A DNA stretch of 64,000 bases from Polyangiales bacterium (lineage in GTDB: Bacteria; Myxococcota_A; Polyangia; Polyangiales; Ga0077539). The notes under the pieces were generated by a model. That model saw nothing but the letters and a program-made list of their open reading frames with translations, was not told the DNA's origin and did no database searches. Location: positions 378,284 to 442,283 of the forward strand of contig JAXLYI010000006.1 in the NCBI GenBank assembly GCA_046351555.1, read 5' to 3'. The position numbers and the translations under genes are program-made. Each line of letters begins with the position of its first letter. The stretch's first letter is position 1. Shown one piece after another: positions 1-45,458 of the stretch.

Positions 1-361
1 CGAGGGGACAGGTCGACACCCCCACGCGGCGCCCGTCGGGGTCGCGGAAGTACGTGGTGAACTGCGTCTCCCCGTCGAGCGCCACGCCCCGCGCCGCGAG
101 CCGTTCGCGCACCGCCGCGCGGCCCTCGTCGCTCACCGCGAAGGCCACCAGCTCGCGCGAACCCGCGGGGACGTCGGGCTCCTCGGGGGCGGCCTGCTCG
201 ATCATCACGACGGCGCCGCCCGCGCGGAGCCACGCGGAGTAGCCCGGCGTCTCGCGCGCCACGGGGAGCTGGAAGATGTCGGTGTAGAAGTCGACGAGGC
301 GGGGGAGGTCGCGCGTGCGGAGGGCCAGGTGATGAACCGCGAGGCCCTCCACACGCGCCAC
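1..361 (-). CDS. VOC/glyoxalase-family protein, 5' part only (gene runs past the window start)
   Basis: Minus-strand translation gives ...VEGLAVHHLALRTRDLPRLVDFYTDIFQLPVARE...GVALDGETQFTTYFRDPDGRRVGVSTCP, a typical glyoxalase/bleomycin-resistance fold, with high GC3. It is absent from the ORF track because it is truncated; GTG start candidates at 352 and 361. Confidence 0.5.
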   Translation of the reverse strand, partial: MARVEGLAVHHLALRTRDLPRLVDFYTDIFQLPVARETPGYSAWLRAGGAVVMIEQAAPEEPDVPAGSRELVAFAVSDEGRAAVRERLAARGVALDGETQFTTYFRDPDGRRVGVSTCPL

Positions 362-368
362 CAGCGGC

Positions 369-507
369 TCAGTGCAGGCCGTCGCAGTCCTCGCCGCAGA
401 AGCGGCAGGCGGGCTGCTGATCGAAGCGGGGGGCCCGCAGCGCGTCGCCACGGCGGCGATCGCTCACGCGGAGGTTCTGAACAACGGGCTTCTCGGTCTT
501 CTTCATC
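369..507 (-). CDS. small hypothetical protein (46 aa) with a C-terminal CxxC..C motif
   Basis: ATG at 505-507 preceded by GGAGG. Peptide MKKTEKPVVQNLRVSDRRRGDALRAPRFDQQPACRFCGEDCDGLH with high GC3. The stop abuts the start of the glyoxalase-like gene (possible co-transcription). Confidence 0.35.
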
Positions 508-641
508 GGCGAGGCCTCCTTCGACGTGTAGTCTGCACACGAAACCGCGCGCATCAAGAGCGAACGCGGTGCTTTCGAGGCGCCGGGATGTGCGCCGGCC
601 GCGCGCTTCACCCCTCGCGCGGCGCGGTGGGGTTGGGGTAG

Positions 642-1496
642 ATGCAGCGGGCGATGAGCATCCAGTGGTACCCCGGGCACATGGCGAAGGCGCGGCGCGA
701 GCTCGCCGACCTCCTCCCCTCGCAGGACGTGGTCATCGAGGTGCTCGACGCCCGCATGCCCTGGGCGAGCCGGAGCCCCGCGGTCGTCGAGCTGCGTCAC
801 GACAAGCCGTCGGTGAAGGTGCTGAGCAAGGCCGACCTCGCCGACGAGGCCGTCACCCGGCGCTGGCTGCGGTTCTTCGAGGAAGACCCCAACGTCGCCG
901 CGATCGCCACCACCCTCGCCACCGCGAACGAGACCCGCGCCCGCGTCCCCGCCCTCTGCGAGAAGGTCTCGAAGCGAACGCGCGGCGCCGACAAGGCCAC
1001 CCGCGCGGTGATCGTCGGCATCCCCAACGTCGGCAAGTCCACGCTCACCAACATTCTCATGGGCCGCAAGGTGGCCGCGGTCGGGGACGTCCCCGCGGTG
1101 ACGCGCGTCCGGCAGCAGGTGACGCTCCCGGGGGGGATGATCCTCTCTGACAACCCGGGGCTCCTCGCGCCGCGCATCGAGGACAACGCGGCCACGACCC
1201 GCCTCGCGCTCGGCGGCGCGATCCCCGACACCGCGCTCGACTACGGGAGCGTCGCCCTCTTCGCCGCGGGCTTCCTGCTCGAACGCTACCCCGGGCTCGC
1301 CGTCGCCCGGTACAAGCTCAAGGTGGTGCCACCGTCGCCGACGGCCCTCGTCGAGGAGGTGGGGCGCCGCCGCGGGTGCCTGCGCGCGGGCGGCGTGGTC
1401 GACACCAACAAGGCCGCGGCGATCCTCGTCCACGACTTCCGCTCGGGCGCGCTCGGCCGCATCAGCCTGGAAGCTCCGCGCGGCGAGTGGCCCTGA
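642..1496 (+). CDS. rbgA: ribosome biogenesis GTPase A (YlqF/RbgA family)
   Basis: WYPGHMAKA signature at the N-terminus; circularly permuted GTPase motifs (DARMP, KADL, GIPNVGKST). Confidence 0.85.
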   Translation: MQRAMSIQWYPGHMAKARRELADLLPSQDVVIEVLDARMPWASRSPAVVELRHDKPSVKVLSKADLADEAVTRRWLRFFEEDPNVAAIATTLATANETRARVPALCEKVSKRTRGADKATRAVIVGIPNVGKSTLTNILMGRKVAAVGDVPAVTRVRQQVTLPGGMILSDNPGLLAPRIEDNAATTRLALGGAIPDTALDYGSVALFAAGFLLERYPGLAVARYKLKVVPPSPTALVEEVGRRRGCLRAGGVVDTNKAAAILVHDFRSGALGRISLEAPRGEWP

Positions 1497-1563
1497 CGAA
1501 TCAGCCGTTCGCGCGCGCGCCGGGCGGTTGCCCGCGTCGGGAGAATGCGCGTAGGCTCGCGCC

Positions 1564-2991
1564 GTGATCCGCCTCCGCGCTGCCACGGTCGCCCTGGCGT
1601 TGTTTTTCGCCCCCGCGCTAGCGCTAGCCGACGACCCCGCGTGCGCGGCCGCGTCGTCGCGCTCGCGGCTGTCGTTCACGAAGCGCGGCGAGGTGGACTT
1701 CGGCCCGGGGTTCACGGGCGACGCGGGGAGCTCGACGCTCGGCATCCGGTACAACTTCCTGCTGCTCGGCGACTACGACTGGATCATGCCGGGCACGCTC
1801 AACGTCCGTTGGCCGCCGGTGCTCACCGCCAGCGCGACGGGCGACCCGATGGGGGGCAGGCTCACCGTGCAGTACGGTTTGCGGCTCCAGTTCTGGCTGC
1901 GGCTGTTCGGCGGGGAGTTCATGATCCCGGTGCCGATGTGGGCGGGGGTCGACCGGAGCGAGCGCGGGTCGTCGATGTTCACCCCGTGGGCGTGGGACCC
2001 GATGCCGACCGCGGTGACGGTGACCGCGCACGAGCGCCTGCTGCGCATGGACTACGTGAGCACGTCGGTCGGCGTGGTCAACTACGCCATCTACGGGAGC
2101 TACGAGCTCACCACCTCGGTGCGCACGCGCGAGATCTCCTTCCCCCAGGCGATGACCTCGATCACCGAGACGATGCCCGACGCGCGCCTCTCGGTCACCG
2201 CCAACGGCGACATGGACCTCCCCACCCGCTGGCTCGGCTCGCTGCGCTACGTCGGCGCGCTGCGCCTGCGCGTCGAGGTCGAGTACCCGGTGCCGGGCGT
2301 CGGGATCCGCCGGCGCGACACGATCTTCAACGAGCCGATCCCCTTCGCCAGCCGCTCCGAGCAGCAGATGAGCGTCGACCGCAACGTGCACCTCTCGATG
2401 CCCGGCGCGGAGGTGAACCCCGGCTTCGAACTCAACCTCGGCACGGTGCGCCTCGGGCTCTCGGGCCGCGAGGTGATCACGCTGCGCAACCCCGGCACCG
2501 CCACCGTGGCCTTCACCCCGGTGGCCCCGATGGACACGCACTTCCAGGTCGCCACCGACCCGCTCTGCGTCGTCGGCGGCGCGTCGCGGCAGCTCTCGGT
2601 CCGCTTCGTCCCCGACCGCCCGGGGCACTTCGAGAGCGAGCTCGTCCTGCGCACGACCGCCCCGTCGGCGCCCGAGGTCCGCGTCCGCCTCGTGGCCGAC
2701 GTGCCCGACACCAACCGCGACGGCGGCGTCACCCCGACGCTCGACGGCGGCGCGCGCGACGCGGCGATCCCGGCGGATGACGCGAGCGTGGAGGAGGACG
2801 TCCCGCCGACCGACAAGGACGCCTCGACGGGCCCGATGGACGCCGACGACGGCCTCGTCGAAAACGCCCCCGCGTGCAACTGCCGCGTGCCCGGCGGCGC
2901 CCCGCGCGCGTCGGGTCGCGGCGTCGTCGCGGGCCTCGCGCTGGCGGCGTTCGCGTTCGGGCGACGGCGGCGCGCTACCGACGCGCGCTGA
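1564..2991 (+). CDS. secreted protein with a C-terminal MYXO-CTERM sorting domain
   Basis: N-terminal signal peptide (ALALFFAPALALA). C-terminus ACNCRVPGG...GLALAAFAFGRRRR matches the MYXO-CTERM pattern (Cys pair, hydrophobic helix, Arg cluster). Confidence 0.7.
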   Translation: MIRLRAATVALALFFAPALALADDPACAAASSRSRLSFTKRGEVDFGPGFTGDAGSSTLGIRYNFLLLGDYDWIMPGTLNVRWPPVLTASATGDPMGGRLTVQYGLRLQFWLRLFGGEFMIPVPMWAGVDRSERGSSMFTPWAWDPMPTAVTVTAHERLLRMDYVSTSVGVVNYAIYGSYELTTSVRTREISFPQAMTSITETMPDARLSVTANGDMDLPTRWLGSLRYVGALRLRVEVEYPVPGVGIRRRDTIFNEPIPFASRSEQQMSVDRNVHLSMPGAEVNPGFELNLGTVRLGLSGREVITLRNPGTATVAFTPVAPMDTHFQVATDPLCVVGGASRQLSVRFVPDRPGHFESELVLRTTAPSAPEVRVRLVADVPDTNRDGGVTPTLDGGARDAAIPADDASVEEDVPPTDKDASTGPMDADDGLVENAPACNCRVPGGAPRASGRGVVAGLALAAFAFGRRRRATDAR

Positions 2992-4384
2992 CCCGGCGGC
3001 GACGACGGCACGAAGCCACCACCGCCGCGGCGAGCCCGAGGGCGCCGGCGTGGGTGTGTGCGTGAGCGCCGACCGCGGCGCAGCGGCAGCCGTCGGCGGG
3101 CGGCGGGGGGGTCACGGGCGCGTCGGGTGCGGCGTCGAGTGCGGCGTCCATCCCGGCGTCGCGTCGTGCGTCCGTCGCCACGTCGCGCGCGGCGTCGCGG
3201 CGGGTGACGTCGGCCGGCGCGCTCGCGTCGAGGGGGTCGGGGTTCTGGAGCATCCGCTGCATCATGGGCCAGCGCTCGACGCAGAACTCCGCGCCCTCCG
3301 AGCGGCGGTCGCACACGGGCGGGCCGAGGAAGTGTTCGAAGTCCCCGAAGCGGAGCATGGGCTCGAAGGTGGCGCCGTCGTCGCGCGAGCGGCCGAGCGC
3401 GAAGTCGTGGCTCACCCAGTCGGAGCAGGCCCAGAGCGCGCCCGCGTGCTGCCGCAGGCAGATCACGGGGAGCGTGTTGACGCGCCGGAAGGAGTCGCCG
3501 CCGTCGTCCGAGCGGAAGAGCCCCTCGGCGATGCTGCCGTACCACACCGTGCGGCCGTCGTCGGAGATGGCGAAGCCGAGCATCGGGTCGCCGGTGGACG
3601 CGACGCGCGTGAAGCTGCGGCCGCCGTCGCGCGAGCGCAGCAGGTCGGTGCGGAGGCCGGACGGGGCGCGGAGGAAGAGCGTGTCGGGGTCGCGCGGGTC
3701 GACGCCCGCGACCCACCAGGAGTCGGCGGGGCCCGGGGTGGTGGTGGCGAGGAGCGTGAGGTTCGTGCCGCCGTCGTCGGAGCGGTAGAGCTTCGGGAGG
3801 AAGGTGTTGGCGTCGGTCCCCGTGACGTAGAGGCGCATCGGGTCGGAGGGGGCGACCTCGATCGTGTCGAAGTTGACGTTGGTGACGCCGGTGCCGAGCC
3901 GTCGAAACTCCAGCGTCTCGCCGTCGCCGCGGTAGACGGCGTTGGGCACGCCCTGCCCGCTCTCGATGCCGAAGATCGCGTCGCCCCGCGGCGTGGCCGT
4001 CAGGTCGAAGAAGGTGTGCATCTGCGTGCCGCGCAGGTCGTCGGCCTTGCACGCGTCGTCGGTCGAGCGGACGCCGATCTCGTAGCCCCAGACCACGCTG
4101 CCGCGGGAGGCGACCTCGATGGGCGCGTCGAAGTTGGAGGCCGGGACGAAGGGGGCGAACATCCCCTCCTCGCACATCCAGCGCCACGTGCGCCCGCCGT
4201 CGCGGCTCAACACCAGCCCGAAGGTGACGCGCAGCGCGACCACGTCGCTCGCCGCGCCGGGGCCCACCACCACATGCTGCGCCGCGGGGAAGCGCCCGTT
4301 GGCGAGGGCGGGGACAGCGACGGCGAGCGCCGCGGCGAGCGCCGCGAGGGGGGTGAACCTCATGCGCCCGGGACTATTGAACAA
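2975..4384 (-). CDS. secreted BNR/Asp-box repeat (sialidase/Ycf48-like beta-propeller) protein with MYXO-CTERM
   Basis: Signal peptide; repeated SxDxGxTW/F Asp-box motifs (SRDGGRTW, SDDGGTN, SRDGGRSF, SDDGGDSF, SRDDGATF). C-terminal GCRCAAVGAHA...RRRRR MYXO-CTERM. Its 3' end overlaps the upstream gene by 17 bp (convergent). Confidence 0.75.
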   Translation of the reverse strand: MFNSPGRMRFTPLAALAAALAVAVPALANGRFPAAQHVVVGPGAASDVVALRVTFGLVLSRDGGRTWRWMCEEGMFAPFVPASNFDAPIEVASRGSVVWGYEIGVRSTDDACKADDLRGTQMHTFFDLTATPRGDAIFGIESGQGVPNAVYRGDGETLEFRRLGTGVTNVNFDTIEVAPSDPMRLYVTGTDANTFLPKLYRSDDGGTNLTLLATTTPGPADSWWVAGVDPRDPDTLFLRAPSGLRTDLLRSRDGGRSFTRVASTGDPMLGFAISDDGRTVWYGSIAEGLFRSDDGGDSFRRVNTLPVICLRQHAGALWACSDWVSHDFALGRSRDDGATFEPMLRFGDFEHFLGPPVCDRRSEGAEFCVERWPMMQRMLQNPDPLDASAPADVTRRDAARDVATDARRDAGMDAALDAAPDAPVTPPPPADGCRCAAVGAHAHTHAGALGLAAAVVASCRRRRRVSARR

Positions 4385-4437
4385 CCACCGCCGCGCGGCA
4401 ATGGCCGCGACGCCCCCGGCGGTGGTACGACCCTGTT

Positions 4438-5214
4438 GTGAGCGCGACGAACCTCTCCTACGAGTTGCACGGCGCGGGCCCCGACGTGGTGTTTCTCCAC
4501 AGCTTCCCGCTCGACCGGTCGATGTGGAAGGGGCAGCTCGTGGCGGCGGGCGCGGCGGGGCGGCGGGCTGTTCTCGTCGACCTGCCGGGCTTCGGCGCGT
4601 CGCCGCTCCCCGCGGGCGCGGCGCCCTCGCTCGACGCGATGGCCCACGCGGTGCTCGACACGCTCGACGCGGTGGGCGCGGCGCGCGCGACGCTGGTCGG
4701 CCTCTCGCTCGGCGGCTACGTCGCGCTCGCGGTGGCCGCGCTCGCGCCCGAGCGCGTGGAGGCCCTCGTCCTCGCCGACACCCGCGCCGCGTCCGACGAC
4801 CCGGCCACCCGCGCGGGCCGCATGCTCAACCTCGCCCTCGTGCGCGACCGCGGCGCCGGCGCGCTCGTCGACAAGATGCTCCCGAAGCTCCTCGCCCCCG
4901 ACGCGCCCGAGGCCCTCCGCGCGGAGGTTCGTGCGCTCGGGGCCGCCCAGTCGCGCGAGGCGGTCACCTTCGCGCTCCTCGCGATGCGCGACCGGCCCGA
5001 CCGCGGCGACGTCGCGGCCGCCCTCGACGTCCCGGCGCTGGTGCTGGCGGGCTCGCGCGACGAGATCACGCCGCCGAAGGAGATGCGCGCGCTGGCGGCC
5101 TCGATGCGGCGCGCCCGCTTCGAGGAGCTGGAGGGCGCCGGGCACCTGTCGTCGCTCGAGCGCCCCGCAGCCTTCAACGCGGCGCTGGAGGGCTTCCTGC
5201 GGGGCGGGCGCTGA
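4438..5214 (+). CDS. alpha/beta hydrolase (enol-lactonase-like)
   Basis: VVFLHSFPLD...GxSxG-type nucleophile elbow (GLSLGG); fold-typical length. Confidence 0.85.
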   Translation: MSATNLSYELHGAGPDVVFLHSFPLDRSMWKGQLVAAGAAGRRAVLVDLPGFGASPLPAGAAPSLDAMAHAVLDTLDAVGAARATLVGLSLGGYVALAVAALAPERVEALVLADTRAASDDPATRAGRMLNLALVRDRGAGALVDKMLPKLLAPDAPEALRAEVRALGAAQSREAVTFALLAMRDRPDRGDVAAALDVPALVLAGSRDEITPPKEMRALAASMRRARFEELEGAGHLSSLERPAAFNAALEGFLRGGR

Positions 5215-5524
5215 CGGCCTTGCGCGCGCGCTCGAGGCGCTCGATGCGGGCGTCGATGCGGTCGAGGTGGACGGACGAGAAGCGGTGGTGGAGGACGCGC
5301 CCCACCGCGAGCAGGGTGCCGAGCGCGACGATCAGCTCGGTGCGCTCGGGCGCGCCGAGGAGCGAGCGGGCGACGTAGCCGACGCCGTAGCCCGCGGCGA
5401 AGAGGGCGATGGCGATGGGGAAGAGGGCCTCGTACCGGTGGAGGTCCCACCAGGTGACGCGGTCGAGGATGCGCTGGCGCTCGCGGCGGGCCTCGGCCAG
5501 CTCGTCGTCGTCGGGTGCGGTCAT
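5174..5524 (-). CDS. small hypothetical membrane protein
   Basis: 116-aa ORF with two predicted TM helices (LFPIAIALFAAGYGVGYV; LIVALGTLLAVG), high GC3, directly downstream of the amidotransferase gene. No clear RBS. Confidence 0.35.
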   Translation of the reverse strand: MTAPDDDELAEARRERQRILDRVTWWDLHRYEALFPIAIALFAAGYGVGYVARSLLGAPERTELIVALGTLLAVGRVLHHRFSSVHLDRIDARIERLERARKAVSARPAGSPPAPR

Positions 5525-5539
5525 TGCGGGGCGGCGACT

Positions 5540-6370
5540 CTACCGTGTTGCGGCGCGGAGGTGGCGGGGCGTCGGCCGGCGCACGGGCGTGCCGCTCGGG
5601 AGCGTCGCGCGCAGGGCTCCGCGGCGGAAGACCAGGAGCGTCGCGGGGTCGGCCGGCGTCCACGACTCGTTGCGGGTGAGCGGCGCGGTGGCGACGACGG
5701 CGACGCGGTCGCGGGGCGTGGTGACCGCGGAGAAGTCGACCGTCACCTCGTCGTCGGCGAGGGTCGCCTGGCCGAAGGGGGGCTGGCGGACGATGTGGCA
5801 GAGCCGCGTGTCGCAGCGCGCGAAGAGGTGGTCGCCGTTGCCGAGGATGAAGTTGAACGTCCCCTTGCGCGCGATGCGCCCGGCCTCGTGGGCCACGGCC
5901 TCCCAGAGCGCCTCGGGCCGCGCGGGCTCGTCGCGGAAGGACGCGCGCAGCGACTCGAGGAGGACGCAGAAGGCGTGCTCGCTGTCGGTGGCGCCCACCG
6001 GGCGGAAGCGCCCGAGCCGCAGCGACGCGGCGTCGCGCACGGTGCCGTTGTGGGCGAAGACCCAGTGGCGGCCCCAGAGCTCGCGCATGAAGGGGTGCGT
6101 GTTGGCGAGGCGCGCGCGCCCGCGGGTCTTCTTGCGGATGTGCGCGACGGCCTGGAGCGTCTTGATCGGCGTGCGGCGGAAGAAGTCCGCGAGCGGCGAG
6201 CGGGCGCACGCCCCGGGGTCGAGGAAGAGCCGCGCCGCCCGCCCCTCGAAGAAGGCCAGGCCCCAGCCGTCGCCGTGCGGCCCCGTCGCGCCGCCGCGCT
6301 GGGAGAAGCCCGTAAAGGAAAACACCAGGTCGGTCGGCGTCCGGCAGTCCATGCCGAGCAGTTCGCACAT
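5540..6370 (-). CDS. class II glutamine amidotransferase (YafJ-type)
   Basis: N-terminal MCELLGM with a catalytic Cys2, as in Ntn-type GATase class II (YafJ family). Confidence 0.8.
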   Translation of the reverse strand: MCELLGMDCRTPTDLVFSFTGFSQRGGATGPHGDGWGLAFFEGRAARLFLDPGACARSPLADFFRRTPIKTLQAVAHIRKKTRGRARLANTHPFMRELWGRHWVFAHNGTVRDAASLRLGRFRPVGATDSEHAFCVLLESLRASFRDEPARPEALWEAVAHEAGRIARKGTFNFILGNGDHLFARCDTRLCHIVRQPPFGQATLADDEVTVDFSAVTTPRDRVAVVATAPLTRNESWTPADPATLLVFRRGALRATLPSGTPVRRPTPRHLRAATR

Positions 6371-6535
6371 GAGAAGTTCTGGGCGCGATCCTACGCCGAA
6401 ACCCTTGCGGCGCAGCCCTCGGGTGACAGAACGCGGGAAGTTGCGCGGCCTTCCGGGGCCGGGGTATGTTCGTCACCTGCGAAAGCCGTGCGGGGTTGTC
6501 CCGCGTCGGTGACGCCGACGCCCAGGAAGCTTTTG

Positions 6536-6916
6536 ATGTCGTCCACGGAGAGCCCCCGATCGCTGCGCCCCACGGCCCGCCCCTCGTCGCGGCCGGTGGG
6601 GCACGAGTTCGTCTCCGCGATGCGGCGGCTGTGGGTGACGCACGACCCGCTCCGCTTCGTGGGCGACGGGGCCGAGACGCTCGACGTCTACGACCACCAG
6701 GCCTACGTCACCGCGCTCTGCGCCGACGAGATCGGCTCGGCGGCGGACGCCGAGAAGGTGATCGCGACGATCCTCCGCCACGAGTTCGGCATCCGCTCGC
6801 CCATCTGGTCCGACCCCGAGTTCGCGCCGCGGCTCCAGCGCCTCGCCGAGGACGTCGCCGCCGTCGTCGCGCGCCGCCCGGCCCGCGCGATCACGCAGCC
6901 CTACGCCGCGCGCTAG
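6536..6916 (+). CDS. hypothetical protein
   Basis: 126-aa ORF with very high GC3. Its TAG stop lies inside the 27-bp direct repeat (see the palindromic element). Confidence 0.45.
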   Translation: MSSTESPRSLRPTARPSSRPVGHEFVSAMRRLWVTHDPLRFVGDGAETLDVYDHQAYVTALCADEIGSAADAEKVIATILRHEFGIRSPIWSDPEFAPRLQRLAEDVAAVVARRPARAITQPYAAR

Positions 6917-6937
6917 ACCGTCGCCGCGTCGGGCTCG
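6911..6937. repeat. 27-bp direct repeat, copy 1 (CGCTAGACCGTCGCCGCGTCGGGCTCG)
   Basis: Identical 27-mer found again at 7585-7611. Carries the stop of the upstream + gene (TAG). Confidence 0.9.
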
Positions 6938-7584
6938 TTCGTGAATGCGCCCTGGTCTCGCCTCATGGCGTCGAGGGCCCTCTCCCCCTCGCGGCCTCCA
7001 TCCCCCGCTCGCCGAGCCCACGAGATGCGCAACGCCTCGCACGGAAATGCTTGCGCGCTCGATGTTTCGAGAAGGTGGAGCATCTGGTTCATCTGCTCGC
7101 GGCCCCGAGTGCCCAGGGTTCGCCCGCCCGCCCTCACTGAACGGGTTAGGCTCACCCTGGGCAACCGGCATGGGATCATCCGCCTGGTGGCGGATTCAGG
7201 CTGCGTGGCTGCGTGGCTGCGAGGCTGCGTGGCTACGTGGCTGCGAGGCTGCGTGGCTCGTTGTTTGTCGCTCGCAGCTCGTCGCCTGAATCCGCCACCA
7301 GGCGGATGATCCCATGCCGGTTGCCCAGGGTGAGCCTAACCCGTTCAGTGAGGGCAGGCGGGCGAACCCTGGGCACTCGGGGCCGCGAGCAGATGAACCA
7401 GATGCTCCTACTTCCGCGATCTCCAGGTCGACAAGCACTTCCGCGCGAGGCTCGGCGAGCGGGGATGGACGCGCGAGGTGACCCCTGACGGCCCTGCGTC
7501 GAGAAATGTGTCCGGCGCAATGCCCGGTACGGGAGAGGGGGACGGAGGGAGAGGGCGCTTCGTGAACGAGCGCGGGGCGCCGCC
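6938..7584. mobile_element. ~650-bp palindromic, non-coding (MITE-like?) element between convergent genes
   Basis: Near-perfect inverted-repeat arms 7078-7201 and 7284-7409 (~124 bp). Central loop of GCGTGGCT/GCGAGGCT octamer tandem repeats (7202-7283). Outer flanks are also partly mirror-symmetric (e.g. CATCCCCCGCTCGCCGAGCC at both ends). The whole block is bracketed by the 27-bp direct repeat. ORFs 6941-7309(+), 6945-7289(+), 7196-7438(-) and 7233-7520(-) are mirror images of one another and judged spurious. Confidence 0.6.
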
Positions 7585-7611
7585 CGCTAGACCGTCGCCG
7601 CGTCGGGCTCG
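7585..7611. repeat. 27-bp direct repeat, copy 2
   Basis: Identical to 6911-6937. Encodes the last residues of RecA (EPDAATV*) on the minus strand. Confidence 0.9.
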
Positions 7612-8648
7612 GCCGACGTCGCCGCGGGGGCCTTCGCCGTCGGGGCCGCGAGGCGCACGGCCTCCCGCAGCTTCGCCAGCAGCGCGGCGTTGCCCGCGAG
7701 CGCCTCGCGGCAGCGCTCGCGCCCGTTGCCGAGGTGCGCGCCGCCGAAGGAGAGGTGCGCGCCCGAGCGGTCGACCACGCCCCGCTCGACGCCGACGTCG
7801 AGCGCCTCGCCCACCGCGTCGATGCCCGTGCCGTAGCGGACGTCGAACTCCGCCTCGCGGAAGGGCGGCGCGAGCTTGTTCTTCACCACCTTCACCCGCG
7901 TGCGGCTGCCCTGCACCTCGTCGCCCGACTTGAGCGAGCCCACCCGCCGCACGTCGAGCCGCACCGAGGCGTAGAACTTCAGCGCGTTGCCCCCGGTGGT
8001 GGTCTCCGGGTTGCCGAACATCACCCCGATCTTCATCCGGAGCTGGTTGATGAAGAGGATGCACGCGCCGCCCCGGTGCGCCGCCGCGGTGAGCTTGCGC
8101 AGCGCCTGCGACATCAGCCGCGCCTGGAGCCCGACGTGGCTGTCGCCCATGTCGCCCTCGAGCTCCGCCTTCGGCACCAGCGCCGCCACCGAGTCGATCA
8201 CGATCAGGTCGACCGCGCCCGACCGCACGAGCGCGTCGGCCACCTCCAGCGCCTGCTCGCCGGTGTCGGGCTGCGAGATGAGGAGCTGCGCGAGGTCGAC
8301 GCCGAGGCCCTTCGCGTAGGCCGTGTCGAGCGCGTGCTCGGCGTCGATGAAGGCCGCCACGCCGCCCCCGCGCTGCACCTCCGCGATCGCGTGGAGCGCC
8401 AGCGTGGTCTTGCCCGACGACTCGGGCCCGTACACCTCCACGATGCGCCCGCGGGGGTAGCCCCCGACGCCGAGCGCCGCGTCGAGCGCGATCGAGCCCG
8501 ACGGGATCACCGCCGCCGCCTCGCGCGCCCCCTCGTCGCCCAGCGTCATCACCGTCCCCTTGCCGAACTGCTTCTCCAGCGCCGCCACCGCACCGCGCAC
8601 CGCGCGAAACCGATCCGTCGTGCTCGAAACCGCCGTCGTCGTGTTCAT
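7587..8648 (-). CDS. recA: recombinase RecA
   Basis: ALEKQFGKG, Walker [10 protein letters not shown], and the L2 loop of RecA. 353 aa from the ATG at 8646-8648; the longer ORF upstream of that Met has an Ala/Pro/Arg-rich, non-RecA extension. Confidence 0.9.
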
Positions 8649-8771
8649 GTTCTCTCGTGTCCTTCCGGGTTGGGCGGGGAGCGCCACCGCGGCGCCGCCC
8701 GCACGAGTCCCGACAAAGCGACGGCCGTGCCGCGCGCGGGAGTGGCTTGATTCAAGGCGTTTCGAAGGCGC

Positions 8772-8842
8772 GGGGGTGGCGGCCGAGGGGTGGCGGCGGG
8801 GTGGCGAGGGGGTGGCGGCGGGGTGGCGGGGTGGCGGGTCGC
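8772..8842. repeat. G-rich tandem repeat (GGGGTGGCGG)x~7 in the recA / sigma54-regulator divergent intergenic region
   Basis: Direct reading: gggggtggcggccgaggggtggcggcggggtggcgagggggtggcggcggggtggcggggtggcggg. Confidence 0.8.
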
Positions 8843-8893
8843 GCGCAGTGGGTGCAGCGCGGCCGCGCTCCGGGATATGCTCGCGCCGGCTTA

Positions 8894-10293
<1,400 letters not shown>

Positions 10294-10315
10294 CCGCGCT
10301 ACACTCTCCCCCGCC

Positions 10316-10666
10316 ATGGACCGCCGCGAACGCCTGGCCCGCAACCCCTTCCTCGTGCTCGGCCTCGCGCCCGACGCCGCGCGCGCCGACGTCGAGCGCG
10401 CCGCGCAGAAGCTCCTCGGATTGCTCGCCGTCGGGGCCAGCGCCGCGAAGCGCTACGCCACGCCCTCCGGCGAGCGCGAGCGCACCGAGGACGACGTCCG
10501 CGCCGCCGCCGCCGAGCTGCGCGACCCGGCCCGCCGCGCCCTCCACGAGCTGTGGGCGGAGGCGCCTGCAACACCGGGAGACGCAGCGCCCGACGTGGGG
10601 GAAGGGCCGCGCTGGGAGGGCGCGCTCGCCGACCTCGGGCTCGCGGCGCGGAGGCCCACGTCGTGA
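10316..10666 (+). CDS. J-domain-like protein
   Basis: NPFLVLGLAPDAARADVERAAQKLL resembles the J-domain helix II region. Stop overlaps the GTG start of the next gene (GTGA). Confidence 0.45.
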   Translation: MDRRERLARNPFLVLGLAPDAARADVERAAQKLLGLLAVGASAAKRYATPSGERERTEDDVRAAAAELRDPARRALHELWAEAPATPGDAAPDVGEGPRWEGALADLGLAARRPTS

Positions 10667-12135
10667 TCCCCTGGGGCGCCATCGCCGTCGCCGCCTGGGC
10701 CGCGTCGCGGGGCCTCGACCCCAACCGCCCGCCGAGCCCCGGGCTCCCGCTCGCCTTCCTCGTCGTCGTCGCGCGGTGGGGGCTCGCGCTGGCCGTCGTC
10801 GTCGCCGCGTCGGGGCTCGCGGGCATGTGGCCGCCGGGCGCGCCCGTCGTGATGCCGTTGGGGCTCGCGCTCGCGTTCGTGCTCACGCGGCCGACGGTTC
10901 TGCTCGAGCGCGTGCTCGTCCCGCGCGGCCTCGCGCGCGCCGCGTACTGGTGGGCGTACGTCACCGTGCCCATGACCGCGCTCTACGACACCCCGGGGGG
11001 CCGCGCCTTCTACGCCGCGCGCGCGCTGCTCCGCCGGCCGACGCCCGACGCCGACGCCGCCACGCTGGCCGAGCGCGCGCTCACCGCCCCGCGCACGACG
11101 CAGCGGACGGGGCTCTCGGTGGCGGCCGAGGGGCTCCTCGCCATCGCGCGGGGCTCGGTCGACCACGGGCGCGTCCTCCTCGCGTCGCTCGATGCGCTCG
11201 ACGAGGGGGCCGTCCGCGCGGCGGCGCGCGTTGTCGCGCGGACGTGGCTCGTGGCCGACGCGCTCGCCGCGGGCGACGTCGAGCGGGCGCTCCGCCACAC
11301 GCAGGGCCCCGGCTTCACCGCGTGGCCCGCGCTCGTGCGCGTCGAGGTCGAACGGGCCCGCGGGGTGAAGTTGCCCTGGTGGAGAGAGCCGCGGCGCTGG
11401 GCGCTGTGGGTTCTTTCGCCGGCGCGGCGTGCGACGAGGCGCTTCCTCGACGGGTGGCGCGAGCGGACGCTGACGCTCCCCGCGGAGGCGGGCGACGCGC
11501 TGGCCGACGCCCTCGCGGTGCACCGGCTCCTGCTGGCCGCGGACGCTCGGACGAAGGGCTACGCCACCGCGCTGGCCGAGGCGTGCCGGCGCTGGGAGGC
11601 CGCGCTCGCGTCGAACGCGCTGCGGGCCCGCGTCGAGCGCCGCAAGCTCGCGCTCAACCTCGCGGAGGAGGCGCCGGCGCTGCTCGATCGCTTCGCGGCG
11701 GAGGTGGAGGGCGACCTGACGGCCTTCGCGTCGGCGGTCGACGGCCCGCTCGCCGAGCTCGACGCCACGACCCTCGGCGAGCGCGTCCGGTACGCCGTGC
11801 GCGAGGCCGACTGCGGCGAGGTCGAGGCGCTGCTCGGCACCCTGCGCGCGCAGACCAACGGGGACTTCCCCGCGACGCCCGAGGCATGGGCGCTCTTCGC
11901 GCGGCTGCGCGACCGGACCGACGCGGCCCTGCGGCGCCACGGCGACGACGCGCGCGACGCGCTGGCGTCGGAGATCTTCCACGGCGCCACCAACTGGACC
12001 TGCCGGCTCTACAACGAGCGCCGCGAGCGCGCGCTCGGCCGCGCGGTGTTCGTGTGGATCCGCGCCCACGCCGACGCGCTCCCCGCGAAGGACCTCCAGC
12101 TCGCCATCAAGAACGCCCGCGTCGCCGCCCACTGA
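10663..12135 (+). CDS. hypothetical membrane protein (N-terminal TM helices plus a large Ala/Arg-rich helical domain)
   Basis: GTG at 10663 overlaps the upstream stop. Three to four hydrophobic helices in the first 130 aa; high GC3 throughout. Confidence 0.5.
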   Translation: MIPWGAIAVAAWAASRGLDPNRPPSPGLPLAFLVVVARWGLALAVVVAASGLAGMWPPGAPVVMPLGLALAFVLTRPTVLLERVLVPRGLARAAYWWAYVTVPMTALYDTPGGRAFYAARALLRRPTPDADAATLAERALTAPRTTQRTGLSVAAEGLLAIARGSVDHGRVLLASLDALDEGAVRAAARVVARTWLVADALAAGDVERALRHTQGPGFTAWPALVRVEVERARGVKLPWWREPRRWALWVLSPARRATRRFLDGWRERTLTLPAEAGDALADALAVHRLLLAADARTKGYATALAEACRRWEAALASNALRARVERRKLALNLAEEAPALLDRFAAEVEGDLTAFASAVDGPLAELDATTLGERVRYAVREADCGEVEALLGTLRAQTNGDFPATPEAWALFARLRDRTDAALRRHGDDARDALASEIFHGATNWTCRLYNERRERALGRAVFVWIRAHADALPAKDLQLAIKNARVAAH

Positions 12136-12181
12136 CCGCGCCGGGGGATCGCGGGGTGTGGCCTGCGCGCAGACCGGCGGC

Positions 12182-12210
12182 GGGCAGTGGGCAGTGGGCA
12201 GTGGGCAGCG
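12182..12210. repeat. (GGGCAGTG)x3-4 tandem octamer in a convergent intergenic region
   Basis: Direct reading: cgggcagtgggcagtgggcagtgggcagcggg. Confidence 0.7.
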
Positions 12211-12222
12211 GGAGGCGCGTCG

Positions 12223-13008
12223 TCAGCCGACGGGCGGGGCGGGGGTCTTCGGGGCAGGCGCCTTGCGCTTGGCGAGGCCGAGTCGGATGAGCAGGTCGCG
12301 GCGGGAGATCACCGCCCGCGCGGTCGTCGACCACTCCTCGAACCACCCCTTGAGCGCGCGCTGCGCGTCGCGGCGCTTCGCGGTGCGCGCGGCCTCGGCG
12401 GCGGGCTGGAGCTCGACCGACTCGGTGCTCCCGAGGGCCACCTGCACGAGGCCCCCGAGGCGCGTGCGCTCGTCGCGGTCGAGGCCGCGCTGCGCGAGGA
12501 GTTCGACCGCACCCTTGCACTCGGCCGCGGGGACGTCGCGGAAGAGCTCGCTCGCGGTCGCCACCGCGTCGCTCGCCTTCTTGTCCTCGCCGTTGCGCGC
12601 CGCGTGCTCGCAGCCGTCGACGCGCAGGAGCAGCGTGGCGACGCCCTGCACCGCGGCCGCGCCCGTCGACGCGGTGAGGTCGCGGAACATCCGCTCGCCC
12701 ACCGCGGGGAAGCGCCGGTCGAGCGCGGCCTGGTAGCGCGCGAAGTTGGGCTCGTCCCAGGCGTCGAGCGCGGCCACCGCGTTGCGCTGCTGCTGCGCCC
12801 CCGCGGAGTCGCGCTTCGCGGCCTCGGCCGGCGGCAGCGCGAGGCACGCGGTGAGGAGCCGCGTCCCCTCCTCGACGTCGGCGTCGCGCATCCCGGCGTT
12901 CTCCAGCAGCGTGCGGATCACCGCGCTCCCGCCCACGCCGGAGATGAAGCGCGTCACCCGCGACGGCGTCTCCTCCAGCAGGCTGTCCGACCACTCGACC
13001 TTCTCCAT
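12223..13008 (-). CDS. hypothetical protein
   Basis: ATG at 13006-13008 preceded by AAGGAGGA. 262 aa, high GC3, no recognisable domain. Confidence 0.45.
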   Translation of the reverse strand: MEKVEWSDSLLEETPSRVTRFISGVGGSAVIRTLLENAGMRDADVEEGTRLLTACLALPPAEAAKRDSAGAQQQRNAVAALDAWDEPNFARYQAALDRRFPAVGERMFRDLTASTGAAAVQGVATLLLRVDGCEHAARNGEDKKASDAVATASELFRDVPAAECKGAVELLAQRGLDRDERTRLGGLVQVALGSTESVELQPAAEAARTAKRRDAQRALKGWFEEWSTTARAVISRRDLLIRLGLAKRKAPAPKTPAPPVG

Positions 13009-13137
13009 CGTCGTCCTCCTTCTCGTGGGTGCGTGGCGAACCGTCGCCCCACCCACCGCCACCATAGGAGAAGCCACGCGTGGCCGACGCCGAGGACAGG
13101 TCGAATCCCGACTTCACACACCGGGGCGCCGCGGAGA

Positions 13138-13306
13138 CCTTCGCCGACGCTCCGGGGGCTTCGCCGACGTCCCCGAAGGCCATCGCCACGCGCAGGAAGC
13201 TGTTTTCAAAGGGCTTCGTGAGGCTGCACGGCGTGCGGGAGGGCGGTGGCCGCGCGGAGGAGGCGGATTTCCGGCGTCGGCGAAGCTCCCGGAGCGTCGG
13301 CGAAGG
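13138..13306. promoter_or_regulatory. operator-like inverted repeat: 32-bp arms (31/32 match), each with 2 copies of CTTCGCCGACG, 105 bp apart
   Basis: Left arm 13138-13169 ccttcgccgacgctccgggggcttcgccgacg; right arm 13275-13306 is its reverse complement with one mismatch. Sits in the 500-bp divergent region between the 12223-13008(-) gene and the small-ORF / S8 peptidase locus. Confidence 0.6.
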
Positions 13307-13509
13307 ACTCCGGGCGGTGGCGGAGGGGTTCGCGGGCATCGCCGAGGTGCACCGCGTCGGCGGCGACCTCTGGGTCCTCGTCGAAGACGTCGACGTGCCC
13401 CGCGAGTACCGCATCAGCCACGCGCTCGGCGACCTCGTCGACGACTACCAACTCGTCCCCCGCCGCCTCCACCGCTGACCTCTCCGCCCCCTCTGGTACG
13501 CTCGCGCTC

Positions 13510-18077: not shown

Positions 18078-19427
18078 CTACGCGCCGCGCTCGAGGTCGT
18101 GCTTGCGGATGAGGCGGTGCACGTAGGTGCGGTCGAGGCCGGCGGCCTGGGCGACGGCGGAGACGTTCCAGTGGTGGCGCTGGAGGAGGCCGGCGACGTA
18201 GGCGCGCTCGAGGTGGTCGAGCCAGCGCTCGCGGAGGTCTTTGAAGGGCTGGTCGAGGTCGACCGAGGGGAGCCCGTCGGCCCCGGCGCCCTCGGGCTTC
18301 TTCTGCCCCGCGGGGATCATCGCGAGCGCCTCCTTCGCGCCGAGGGCCACCGCGCGCTCGACGAAGTTGCGCAGCTCGCGCACGTTGCCGAGCCACGGCC
18401 GCGCGGCGAGCTCGCGCATGAGCTCCGGCGGCAGCGCGCCCCCCGCGCCCGGCGGCAGGAAGTGCTGGACGAGCAGGGGAATGTCCTCCGCGCGGCCCCG
18501 CAACGGCGGCACGGCCACGGGCAGCACCGCGAGGCGGAAGTAGAGGTCCTCGCGGAAGGCGCCCGAGTTGACCATCGTGCGCAGGTCGCGGTGCGTGGCC
18601 GACACGATGCGCACGTTGACCTTGCGGTAGGCGCTCTCGCCGATGCGCCGCACCGCGCGCGACTCGATCGCCCGCAGGAGCTTGGGCTGCATCGAGAGCG
18701 GCAGCTCGCCGACCTCGTCGAGGAAGACGGTCCCCCCCTCGGCCGTCTCGAAGGCGCCCGCCCGCGCGTTGGCCGCGCCGGTGAAGGCCCCCTTGGCGTG
18801 GCCGAAGAGCTCGGCCTCGAGGAGGTTCTCGGGCAGCGCGCCGCAGTCGACGATGACGAAGGGCTCCGCCGCGCGGGGCGACGCGCCGTGGATCGCCTCG
18901 GCGACGAGCTCCTTGCCCGTGCCCGTCTCCCCCTGCACGAGCACGGTGGAGTCCGTCGCCGCGATGCGGGCCAGCCGCGCGAAGAGCTCGCGCATCGCCA
19001 TCGAGCGCCCGAGCAGCGGCCCGAAGCGCCCGTCGGGGTGCAGCTCCACCGGCGAGGGGGCGGGCTCGTAGCTCACCGTGAGGGACGTCGCCCCCGCCTG
19101 CACGCGCCCGCCGTCGGGCACGCGCGCCGACTGGACCAGCACGCCCTCGACGAAGGTGCCGTTCCTGCTCCCGAGGTCGCGCACCCAGACGCCGTCGTCG
19201 CGCGCTTCGAACTCGAGGTGGAGGCGCGACACCGCCGGGTCGCTCACCACCAGGTCGACCCCGGGCGCGGCCCCGAGCACCGCGCGCCCGTCGAGCGCGG
19301 CGGCGTGGGGCCCCGAGGCGTCCTGCCAGGCGACCCGCGGCCGGCGCCGCGTGGCGGTGAGCGTCGCGCCGAGCGCGTCCCGCTGCACGACCGTGACGTT
19401 GGGCAAAGGCCCCGCTCGTTCAGCCAT
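18078..19427 (-). CDS. sigma54-dependent transcriptional activator with an N-terminal FHA domain
   Basis: FHA (GRAVLGAAPGVDLVVSDPAVSRLHLEF...GSRNGTFVEG), AAA+ sigma54 domain (GETGTGKE, GAFTGA, ELFGH), C-terminal HTH. Confidence 0.85.
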   Translation of the reverse strand: MAERAGPLPNVTVVQRDALGATLTATRRRPRVAWQDASGPHAAALDGRAVLGAAPGVDLVVSDPAVSRLHLEFEARDDGVWVRDLGSRNGTFVEGVLVQSARVPDGGRVQAGATSLTVSYEPAPSPVELHPDGRFGPLLGRSMAMRELFARLARIAATDSTVLVQGETGTGKELVAEAIHGASPRAAEPFVIVDCGALPENLLEAELFGHAKGAFTGAANARAGAFETAEGGTVFLDEVGELPLSMQPKLLRAIESRAVRRIGESAYRKVNVRIVSATHRDLRTMVNSGAFREDLYFRLAVLPVAVPPLRGRAEDIPLLVQHFLPPGAGGALPPELMRELAARPWLGNVRELRNFVERAVALGAKEALAMIPAGQKKPEGAGADGLPSVDLDQPFKDLRERWLDHLERAYVAGLLQRHHWNVSAVAQAAGLDRTYVHRLIRKHDLERGA

Positions 19428-43934: not shown

Positions 43935-45458
43935 ATGAGCCTCACGAAGCGCACTCTCCTCATGGCGGCCGCGGGAGCGGCCCTCACGCTCGCGCCCGGC
44001 GCCGCCTCGGCGCAGGACTACTCGCGCTGGGTGTTCCGCGCGGAAGTGGGCGCGGGCACGATGCTCCACGACTTCTTCAACCCGCCCGACACGCTCGACA
44101 CCGGCACGCTCGCGGGCCAGCTCTCGGCGCGCGTCACCTACCGCTTCGTCGGCCCCCTCGGCGTCCAGCTCGGCGCCGGCTTCGGGCGCTTCTTCCAGCC
44201 CAACAACCGCGACGACGTGCCGGTCATCTTCGGCATCGGCGGCCTCCGCGTCGACCCCGAGATCGGCCGCGTCGGGCGCCTCTGGCTCGACGCCAACGGC
44301 GGCCTCTTCGCCGTCGGCACCATCAACCGCGGCGGCATCGACGCGGGGCTCGGCTTCGAGTTCCGCCTCTCCGACACGGTCGCGATCGGGCCCTTCGCAC
44401 GCTACGCGCGGGTGTTCGACGGGCGCTACGTGCCGCCCTCCAACGCGACCGGCACGATGCTCGGCGGCGCGGGCGTGGCCGGCGACATCGACTGGTGGGT
44501 CGCGGGCATCAACCTCGCCATCTACTCCCTCAACGACGCGCCGCCGCCCCCGCCGCCCCCGCCGCCCCCGGCCGACGGCGACAACGACGGCGTCACCGAC
44601 CCCAACGACCAGTGCGTGGCCGTGCCCGCGGGCGACCACCCCGACCCCGCGCGCGCCGGCTGCCCGCTCGCCGACGACGACCACGACGGCGTCTACGGCA
44701 GCGACGACCAGTGCCCCACCGACGCCGCGGGCGACCACCCCGACCCCGCGCGCGCCGGCTGCCCCGCGTCGGACGAGGACCACGACAACGTCTACGGCGC
44801 CGACGACCTGTGCCCCACCGACGCCGCGGGCGACCACCCCAACCCCGAGCGCGCGGGCTGCCCCGACGCCGACGGCGACAGCGACGGCGTCTTCGACCAC
44901 GGCGACCAGTGCCCGGCCGAGGCCGCGGGCCTGCACCCCGACCCGGCGCGCGCCGGCTGCCCGCTGCCCGACCGCGACCACGACAGCATCCCCGACGCGA
45001 CGGACGCTTGCCCCGACCGCCCCGGCGCCCCGAGCTCGACGCCCGCGCGCAACGGCTGCCCCGGCCTCCTCGTGATCGAGAACGGCGCGCTCCGCATCCT
45101 GCGCCCCGTGTTCTTCGCGCCCAACCGCGACGCGATCCTCCCGGCGAGCACCCCCGTGCTCAACGCGATGGCCGACGCGCTCCGCACCACCACGGAGATC
45201 CGCCGCGTCTCGATCGAGGGCCACACCGACGACGTCGGCGCCGACGAGGCCAACCTCGACCTCTCGCGCCGCCGCGCCGCCGCCGTGGTGCGCTGGCTCA
45301 CCACCACCGGCCGCGTCGACGCCGCCCGGCTCACGTCCGAGGGCTTCGGCGAGGCGCGGCCCCTCCAGCCCATCGCCGGCCTCGCCGGCCCCCGCCTCGT
45401 CGCCGCGCGCGCGCAGAACCGCCGCGTCGAGTTCCGCATCACCGAGATCGCCCACTGA
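43935..45458 (+). CDS. OmpA-family outer-membrane protein with thrombospondin type-3 (Ca-binding DxDxDG) repeats
   Basis: Signal peptide; six TSP3-like repeats (DxDxDGVxDxxDQCP...HPDPARAGCP); C-terminal OmpA domain (NRDAILP...EGHTDDVG...LSRRRA). Confidence 0.85.
   Translation: MSLTKRTLLMAAAGAALTLAPGAASAQDYSRWVFRAEVGAGTMLHDFFNPPDTLDTGTLAGQLSARVTYRFVGPLGVQLGAGFGRFFQPNNRDDVPVIFGIGGLRVDPEIGRVGRLWLDANGGLFAVGTINRGGIDAGLGFEFRLSDTVAIGPFARYARVFDGRYVPPSNATGTMLGGAGVAGDIDWWVAGINLAIYSLNDAPPPPPPPPPPADGDNDGVTDPNDQCVAVPAGDHPDPARAGCPLADDDHDGVYGSDDQCPTDAAGDHPDPARAGCPASDEDHDNVYGADDLCPTDAAGDHPNPERAGCPDADGDSDGVFDHGDQCPAEAAGLHPDPARAGCPLPDRDHDSIPDATDACPDRPGAPSSTPARNGCPGLLVIENGALRILRPVFFAPNRDAILPASTPVLNAMADALRTTTEIRRVSIEGHTDDVGADEANLDLSRRRAAAVVRWLTTTGRVDAARLTSEGFGEARPLQPIAGLAGPRLVAARAQNRRVEFRITEIAH

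Follow-up and report, generated by a model that had tools for sequence, protein, structure and literature searches.

In a stretch of 64,000 nucleotides of contig JAXLYI010000006.1 from a Polyangiales bacterium (hereafter the window, to whose positions all coordinates refer unless a locus is named), recA and a convergent neighboring gene are separated by a palindromic insert of 640 bp at 6938-7577. Judged by alignment with related loci, this segment is an insertion, and the ancestral state was recA and a gene for a 126-amino-acid protein with overlapping stop codons in the tetranucleotide CTAG. We read the insert as one copy of a non-coding, non-autonomous palindromic repeat family, similar to the small transposable elements with inverted repeats known as MITEs, that belongs to an uncultured Polyangiales lineage and is flanked here by an exceptionally long target duplication; we put the probability of this reading at about 55%. 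Related copies, recognized by similarity of the arms, sit at other 3' gene ends.

A 34-bp duplication rebuilds both gene ends

An earlier note on this DNA, made from the sequence alone, had reported that the 27-mer CGCTAGACCGTCGCCGCGTCGGGCTCG occurs twice, at 6911-6937 and 7585-7611. An exact count in the 64 kb agrees, and the expectation from 100 shuffles is no match, even with three mismatches allowed. The true repeat is longer, 34 nucleotides with one mismatch (6904-6937 and 7578-7611), of which the inner 27 bp are exact. The duplication proposed in the note therefore stands, whereas its length becomes 34 instead of 27 bp, both by extension of the match and by comparison with the empty site L012 described below. 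Relative to that site the net gain is 640 bp plus 34 bp of duplicated target, namely the last 10 nucleotides of the neighboring gene, the shared stop and the last 20 nucleotides of recA. The features of the locus are as follows.

6536-6916, plus strand: convergent neighbor of recA, encoding a conserved hypothetical protein of 126 amino acids (from the list of open reading frames, with a choice of start)
6904-6937, no strand: direct repeat copy 1, 34 nucleotides; the last 10 nucleotides of the neighboring gene, its stop, and a non-coding copy of 20 nucleotides of the recA 3' end
7578-7611, no strand: direct repeat copy 2, 34 nucleotides; the real recA 3' end and stop, and 10 nucleotides of the neighboring gene that are non-coding here
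7587-8648, minus strand: recA, intact, 353 amino acids (Pfam RecA, E = 1e-133, and also RecA_C)

The stop codon TAG of the neighboring gene (6914-6916) lies within copy 1, and copy 2 rebuilds the tail of RecA, including EPDAATV and the stop. The note had assigned the two gene ends in the same way, and the open reading frames and Pfam bear it out. Both reading frames are intact, as the duplicated target includes enough sequence to restore the two gene ends. The RecA protein of the window is identical to NCBI MFO0603822.1, from a Polyangiales bacterium metagenome-assembled genome (MAG).

Orthologous recA loci, which the note had suggested comparing, include four that are empty. A scan with the 126-amino-acid protein identified L012 (WBZM01009424.1), with a single 34-mer at its positions 118-151. 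Window 6787-6937 matches L012 1-151 at 98% identity, window 7578-9998 matches L012 118-2546 at 97%, and the two matches overlap by exactly the 34-mer. L012 reads ...TACGCCGCCCGCTAGACCGCCGCCGCGTCGGGCTCGGCC..., with both stops overlapping as CTAG, exactly as had been deduced for a single copy of the repeat; the proposal that an insertion duplicated its target and regenerated both gene ends is thereby upheld against an actual empty site. L003, whose recA is 91% identical, is empty in the same arrangement with CTAA, and L010 and L011 are empty with the stops 3-4 nucleotides apart. Orthologs of the 126-amino-acid protein, 84-88% identical, adjoin recA in L003, L010 and L011.

The site is filled in three conspecific assemblies and in a diverged lineage, L002. 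L009, a noisy long-read contig that is syntenic over window 1-12979 with a recA about 98% identical, has the whole element and both repeat copies. L001 (recA 99.6% identical) has the recA-side half before its contig ends in the loop, and L002 has the first 74 nucleotides past the stop, with the same junction, before its contig ends inside the element. From these alignments, near-identical strains are polymorphic for the filled allele. A fold-back chimera or mis-join in the MAG is barely credible as the source of the structure: palindromes do break short-read assemblies, and L001 and L002 end inside the element, but the same structure with both repeat copies is present in the independent contig L009, the recA-side half recurs in two further assemblies, and the imperfect arms and asymmetric flanks are unlike a chimera. 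The empty alleles, in turn, are unlikely to be collapses, since a 34-bp repeat is shorter than the usual final-graph k-mers of short-read assemblers.

Exchange of the filled allele between lineages

Although the recA of L002 is 89.8% identical to that of the window overall, a sliding comparison gives 81-88% over nucleotides 1-600 and 93-97% over the last approximately 400. In L003, L010 and L011 the trend along the gene, relative to the window, is the opposite, and in L012 identity falls to about 95% at the very 3' end. By this pattern of identities, the filled haplotype, consisting of the recA 3' end and the insert, has been exchanged between diverged lineages by homologous recombination. The recombination tract over the recA 3' end explains the insert in L002 without a second insertion. 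The 34-bp repeats would make the insert removable by slippage, and such a loss in L012 is possible but not required, as L012 can simply retain the ancestral empty allele.

Structure of the insert

The insert consists of two inverted arms about an asymmetric loop, set within partly mirrored outer flanks, as follows.

6933-6953, plus strand: left terminal inverted-repeat-like end GCTCGTTCGTGAATGCGCCCT, its first 5 nucleotides overlapping repeat copy 1
6938-7016, no strand: left outer flank, partly mirrored on the right (half-element and local alignment)
7017-7201, plus strand: A-type arm, conserved unit CCCACGAGATGCGC to GGATTCAGGC (nhmmer arm profile at 7034-7205, E = 1e-56)
7071-7201, no strand: left near-perfect arm, 131 nucleotides, 98% complementary to 7284-7414
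7202-7283, no strand: asymmetric loop, made of an octamer array and then the unique stretch TCGTTGTTTGTCGCTCGCAGCTCGTCGCC
7284-7451, minus strand: B-type arm (nhmmer match at 7451-7280, E = 5e-59)
7452-7577, no strand: right outer flank, ending with an inverted-repeat-like end (7552-7571) and a 6-nucleotide filler, GCGGGG (7572-7577)

The near-perfect arms lie 82 nucleotides apart and measure 131 nucleotides, where 124 had been given earlier. The left one folds as three local hairpins (z = -4.7, minus strand). The A-specific segment, CGCGCTCGATGTTTCGAGAAGGT, is at 7054-7076, and the B-specific segment, TCGACCTGGAGATCGCGGAAGTA, is found as its reverse complement at 7409-7431. As the note had observed, the loop is built of octamer repeats, with 7.5 copies of GCGTGGCT (in register GGCTGCGT) at 7199-7258. 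The outer flanks, described there as mirror-related, align as mirror images only in blocks, which alternate with unrelated stretches; a block in the right flank, CATTGCGCCGGACACATTTCTCGACGCAGGGCCGTCAGGGG on the minus strand, is common to the locus L008 introduced below. The 20-nucleotide ends, GCTCGTTCGTGAATGCGCCCT and GCTCGTTCACGAAGCGCCCT, agree in 17 of their 20 nucleotides and have no other match in the window, the left one overlapping the duplication by 5 nucleotides and the right one stopping 6 nucleotides short of it. The 13-mer GCTCGTTCRYGAA is likewise found in the window only at the left end and at 7559-7571 on the minus strand, that is, at both ends of the insert. Folding of the region in full gives -560.6 kcal/mol (z = -24.6). 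The G+C content of the element is 68%, against 74% for the window.

Two further differences between strains were seen within the element. At window 7443-7451, the recA-side flank is missing 45 nucleotides (CTCGCGGCCTCCATCCCCCGCTCGCCGAGCCCACGAGATGCGCTAC-like) that are present in L001 (3905-3950) and in L009; this is a slippage-type deletion between short repeats within the element. The loop of an outer-flank hairpin is inverted between L001 (3828-3842) and the window (7523-7537), CCCGTACCGGG against CCCGGTACGGG, which is the kind of change made by template switching inside a hairpin.

A dispersed family with a fixed polarity

Since gene callers were expected to read open reading frames through repeats of this kind, relatives were sought by comparing a three-frame translation of the element with proteins. 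Three proteins matched. P0121, from the same MAG, is an RCC1-repeat protein whose C-terminus runs through a B-type arm and loop, and it is from this protein alone that the second copy in the source MAG is known. P0122 and P0123 lie on contigs of ENA sample ERZ1714334, which also gave L009. Beyond the source MAG, contigs of that sample account for four further loci in all, and its strain appears to be the richer of the two in copies. L007, L008 and L009 come from an error-prone assembly, and L007 and L008 are not shown to share the organism of L009. L008 has a complete copy at approximately 6243-7254, in the opposite orientation, between convergent genes for an AI-2E transporter and an outer-membrane protein. 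L007 has two copies, one with an arm cut short at a stop codon and the other, at 11635-11876, diverged, and L009 has an additional diverged copy at about 861-1126. With the nhmmer arm profile, 13 arm matches were obtained in the window and the fetched loci combined, and no further copy in the 64-kb window. An exhaustive phmmer search with the open reading frame at 6941-7309 gave 35 matches, among which only P0121, P0122 and P0123 aligned to the arm region; in five of the others, whose sequences were read, the match was in every case to the unrelated translation of an octamer repeat (CVAAWLRG...).

The arm core is approximately 170 nucleotides long, running from CCCACGAGATGCGC to GGATTCAGGC, and its inner 110 nucleotides or so are at least 97% identical in eight full-length arms from five assemblies and three genomic loci. 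A segment of about 23 nucleotides exists as an A form (CGCGCTCGATGTTTCGAGAAGGT) or a B form (TCGACCTGGAGATCGCGGAAGTA). In all complete copies, those of the recA site and of the unrelated locus L008, one arm is A and the other B, so the element has a polarity and would move as a whole. The loop, comprising the octamer array and TCGTTGTTTGTCGCTCGCAGCTCGTCGCC, is common to the window, L001, L009, L008 and, at the protein level, P0121. The outer flanks are variable, with nested hairpins that have tandem-repeat loops of their own (L008 6403-6626 and L007 6417-6544). The note had proposed counting copies elsewhere, and had held that a single-copy element at a locus with no empty site would speak against a mobile insertion; the protein and nhmmer searches found dispersed relatives at unrelated loci, and empty sites exist.

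These copies also bear on site-specific integration, in which the 34-mer would be the core of an attachment (att) site and the insert a miniature element resembling a cis-mobilizable element (CIME), with its own recA-neighbor junction and a recombinase encoded elsewhere. Integrase-driven elements classically insert at a 3' gene end and regenerate it, the repeat length suits att cores, and two diverged lineages have the insert at the same site. However, the other copies adjoin unrelated sequence, which leaves the note's suggestion of a site-specific insertion with its own target copy unsupported: no 34-mer-like site stands beside the L007, L008 or second L009 copies, the best match near L007 and L008 being 12-14 nucleotides long and far from the copies. 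Occupancy in L002 is explained by the recombination tract, and no recombinase gene was found in or beside the element, making this origin quite improbable. A 9-nucleotide match between the end of the neighboring gene, CGCCGCCCG, and the L008 flank was dismissed as chance, being at a non-equivalent position in low-complexity, G+C-rich sequence.

Interchangeable palindromes in convergent-gene spacers

L014, a JGI sequence syntenic with L008, was considered as an empty site for the L008 copy and rejected, because it holds another palindrome instead. This palindrome lies between the same two genes and is of the same design, with arms at 1104-1228 and 1298-1422 (125 nucleotides, 98%) and a 69-nucleotide loop of a G-rich repeat; L014 and L008 have only the outer palindromic layers in common. 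From this difference in the inner palindromes, convergent-gene spacers in this lineage hold interchangeable inner palindromes and appear to be hot spots of mutual replacement.

Another such spacer is found in the window at 12136-12212, between convergent open reading frames ending at 12135 (plus strand) and approximately 12190 (minus strand), and contains a (GGGCAGT)x4.4 array. L009, about 98% identical, has there instead a diverged palindromic family member of approximately 400 bp with an octamer loop of GTCGTGGC. Taken as a candidate second pair of filled and empty alleles, L009 861-1126 and window 12136-12190 were set aside: L009 has a substitute for the spacer and not a clean interruption of it, which leaves no duplication to be read. 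The window has a further intergenic palindrome at 13132-13169 and 13275-13312, with 38-nucleotide arms (95% complementary) and a 105-nucleotide spacer; both arms are themselves internal direct repeats of CTTCGCCGACG, and the palindrome is unrelated to the recA element by BLAST and nhmmer.

Searches for genes, RNAs and known elements

Six open reading frames of 80-122 amino acids in the element gave no Pfam family at E<=0.1, in keeping with the note's finding of no transposase or integrase within it, and the palindromic layout argues against coding. BLASTN of the whole element against plasmids and phages gave no match. The arm 22-mer GAACGGGTTAGGCTCACCCTGG had no match in genome_contigs, metagenome_contigs or viral_contigs, collections from which the source genome and its close relatives are absent, and a 20-mer pattern had none in viral_contigs. 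Rfam 15 gave no match at E<=1 over 6000-9000, and ARAGORN predicted no tRNA or tmRNA gene. No sigma-70-like promoter was found in the element, and its sole terminator-like site is a weak one in the loop (7231-7258). Candidate sigma-54 promoters, parS sites and retron msr/msd were rejected by eye, and no reverse transcriptase open reading frame, as would be expected of a retron, adjoins the palindrome. We found no described family of this kind from myxobacteria in the literature.

The note had also offered a native terminator or small RNA gene as an explanation. A conserved structured RNA or terminator of the recA locus, present without any insertion, would account for the extremely stable fold and for its position between convergent genes. 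As an origin it is excluded by the empty sites, four independent ones with one of them in a relative 97-98% identical, and we regard it as very improbable given also the homologous copies at unrelated loci and the lack of an Rfam match, of a promoter-like site and of any terminator-like site beyond the weak one in the loop. A terminator-like effect acquired after insertion may nonetheless exist.

Among the genes adjacent to the element, to which the screen for a recombinase was confined, none encodes one: they are recA, the 126-amino-acid hypothetical gene (no Pfam family), and genes for a class II glutamine amidotransferase, an alpha/beta hydrolase and a sigma-54 activator. Two other repeats were noted in the window. 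An inverted match of approximately 500 nucleotides (72-77%) joins 9347-9845, in the gene for the sigma-54-dependent response regulator adjoining recA, to 18499-18997, probably a paralog in the opposite orientation. A coding region at 44466-45059 has five tandem 99-nucleotide units, Asp-rich (DxDxDGV-like), that by eye resemble thrombospondin type 3 or OmpA-associated calcium-binding repeats.

How the insert may have arrived

The three origins named in the note were a non-autonomous, MITE-like element, a site-specific insertion and a native terminator or small RNA gene, and the first fits best. The symmetrical 20-nucleotide ends and the fixed order of A arm, loop and B arm suggest that the element moved as a defined unit. 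An enzyme acting in trans would probably have cut the target strands about 34 nucleotides apart, and gap filling would then have made the duplication, as in transposons with long duplications (the insertion sequence (IS) group IS1202, and IS1549/IS1634). A plausible consequence is insulation of the convergent transcripts, in both of which the 131-nucleotide stems are predicted to form a strong hairpin that would shield recA and its neighbor from read-through.

Several observations weigh against a transposed MITE-like unit. Neither a transposase nor any other enzyme was identified, nor did an autonomous partner with the same ends come to light. The outermost palindromic layers of L008 differ from those of the window, so the 20-nucleotide ends are not family-wide. 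The note had proposed checking each copy for a flanking duplication: 34 bp are found at the recA site, but direct repeats around L008 and L007 did not score above shuffles, and while L007 is truncated, L008 is the only other complete copy. At the recA site itself, six extra nucleotides (GCGGGG) stand between the right end and repeat copy 2, and the left end shares GCTCG with the target; such filler and microhomology are more usual where ends are joined by repair than where a transposase joins them. The relationship of L008 to L014 looks like replacement by recombination and not like transposition. As to the insulating role, the U-tract of an intrinsic terminator is lacking: neither strand has a run of T after the base of the large stem.

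The junction features, the lack of a long repeat at L008, the differing outer layers and the comparison of L008 with L014 together make capture by repair or template switching a serious rival, though on balance we consider it unlikely. A palindromic repeat from another locus would have been pasted in, with no transposase, by repair of a staggered break or by microhomology-mediated template switching: having left the target at ...GGGCTCG, the fork would have copied the palindrome of the donor and come back in 34 nucleotides upstream, thereby duplicating the target, and the inner cores would then have spread by ectopic gene conversion between palindromes with common outer layers and loops. Inner palindromes that differ inside common outer layers, as in L008 and L014, are what conversion or replacement predicts; the window copy has outer layers absent from L008, as if donor context had been copied along, and in L009 a diverged copy takes the place of the spacer found at window 12136-12190. 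However, the ends of the insert are near-symmetrical about the palindrome axis (17 of 20 nucleotides), which is unexpected for capture of a random segment. The empty recA site offers neither a palindrome nor homology from which conversion could be primed, its fold is no better than that of shuffles, and 5 nucleotides of microhomology are weak evidence in DNA of 74% G+C.

More speculatively, and doubtful as it stands, these could be an undescribed class of layered palindromic elements that colonize convergent-gene junctions in Polyangiales and spread with no conventional transposase. The integrating form would be a snap-back single strand, or DNA with hairpin ends, joined across a stagger of about 34 nucleotides; alternatively, spread would be by template switching into hairpin apices. 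A spacing of about 34 nucleotides is otherwise typical of Cas1-type integrases. If such a class exists, the A/B asymmetry and the octamer loop would be functional parts of its cycle.

Comparison with known mobile elements

Under the preferred reading of a MITE-like family, the closest models are the bacterial MITEs such as Correia/NEMIS, ERIC/IRU, RUP and Nezha, which are likewise small and non-coding, have inverted-repeat ends (compare the inverted-repeat-like ends here) and a target duplication, form a long hairpin, sit in intergenic positions at 3' gene ends and are polymorphic among strains. The recA element is short, has no recognizable gene and belongs to several dispersed copies, with a second in the same MAG (through P0121) and four loci in ERZ1714334. 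Unlike MITEs, whose duplications are typically 2-10 bp, it has one of 34 bp; its size, 640-1000 bp, is large among bacterial MITEs; nearly all of it is palindromic, with nested hairpins around tandem-repeat loops; the inner arm, not the termini, is most conserved; and no parent IS is known. The element works like a MITE, with a poor or less clear fit as to a fixed duplication length, family-wide termini and a known parent.

The only well-populated bacterial IS group with duplications near this length is the IS1202 subgroup, which has direct repeats of 27-29 bp, ends starting TGT or TrT, and hosts among the Firmicutes and Tenericutes and one spirochaete (bioRxiv 10.1101/2022.12.17.520857). In contrast, the recA element has a 34-bp repeat, ends starting TTCGTGAA... 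or GCTCGTTC... in place of TGT or TrT, and a host in the Myxococcota. A length of 29 bp is reached only if the 5-nucleotide overlap at the left end is counted as element, and the 6-nucleotide filler is then unexplained. In IS1549 and IS1634, of the IS1634 family, the direct repeats are long and variable, at 8-514 bp (PMC2266710). A variable stagger of that kind would fit a family in which one copy has a long duplication and another has no detectable one, but those elements are autonomous, 1.5-2 kb long, found in mycobacteria and mycoplasmas and bounded by short inverted repeats, and have no sequence link to the recA element.

Elements flanked by att sites that lack their own integrase, including CIMEs, similarly have no recombinase inside and a direct repeat by which the target gene regains its 3' end; they differ in that the other members of the present family are not beside the same site and show no sign of an integrase partner. 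Clusters of repetitive extragenic palindromic sequences (REPs) and bacterial interspersed mosaic elements (BIMEs) offer another parallel, as palindromes that accumulate between convergent genes, with new ones inside older ones (compare L008 with L014). REPs, however, are 20-40 bp long and linked to RAYT transposases, with copies in the hundreds, whereas the units of the recA element are approximately 170-215 nucleotides per arm and of low copy number in the available data.

Significance

The recA locus provides a clean natural case, with filled and empty alleles, of an insertion in two overlapping stop codons that leaves both genes intact. To our knowledge, a 34-bp duplication exceeds the fixed length made by any catalogued bacterial IS group, which would point to an unrecognized transposition enzyme in the Myxococcota or to a repair-based route for palindromic repeats. 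A non-coding insert that crosses lineages together with the 3' end of recA also calls for caution in recA-based phylogeny of this group.

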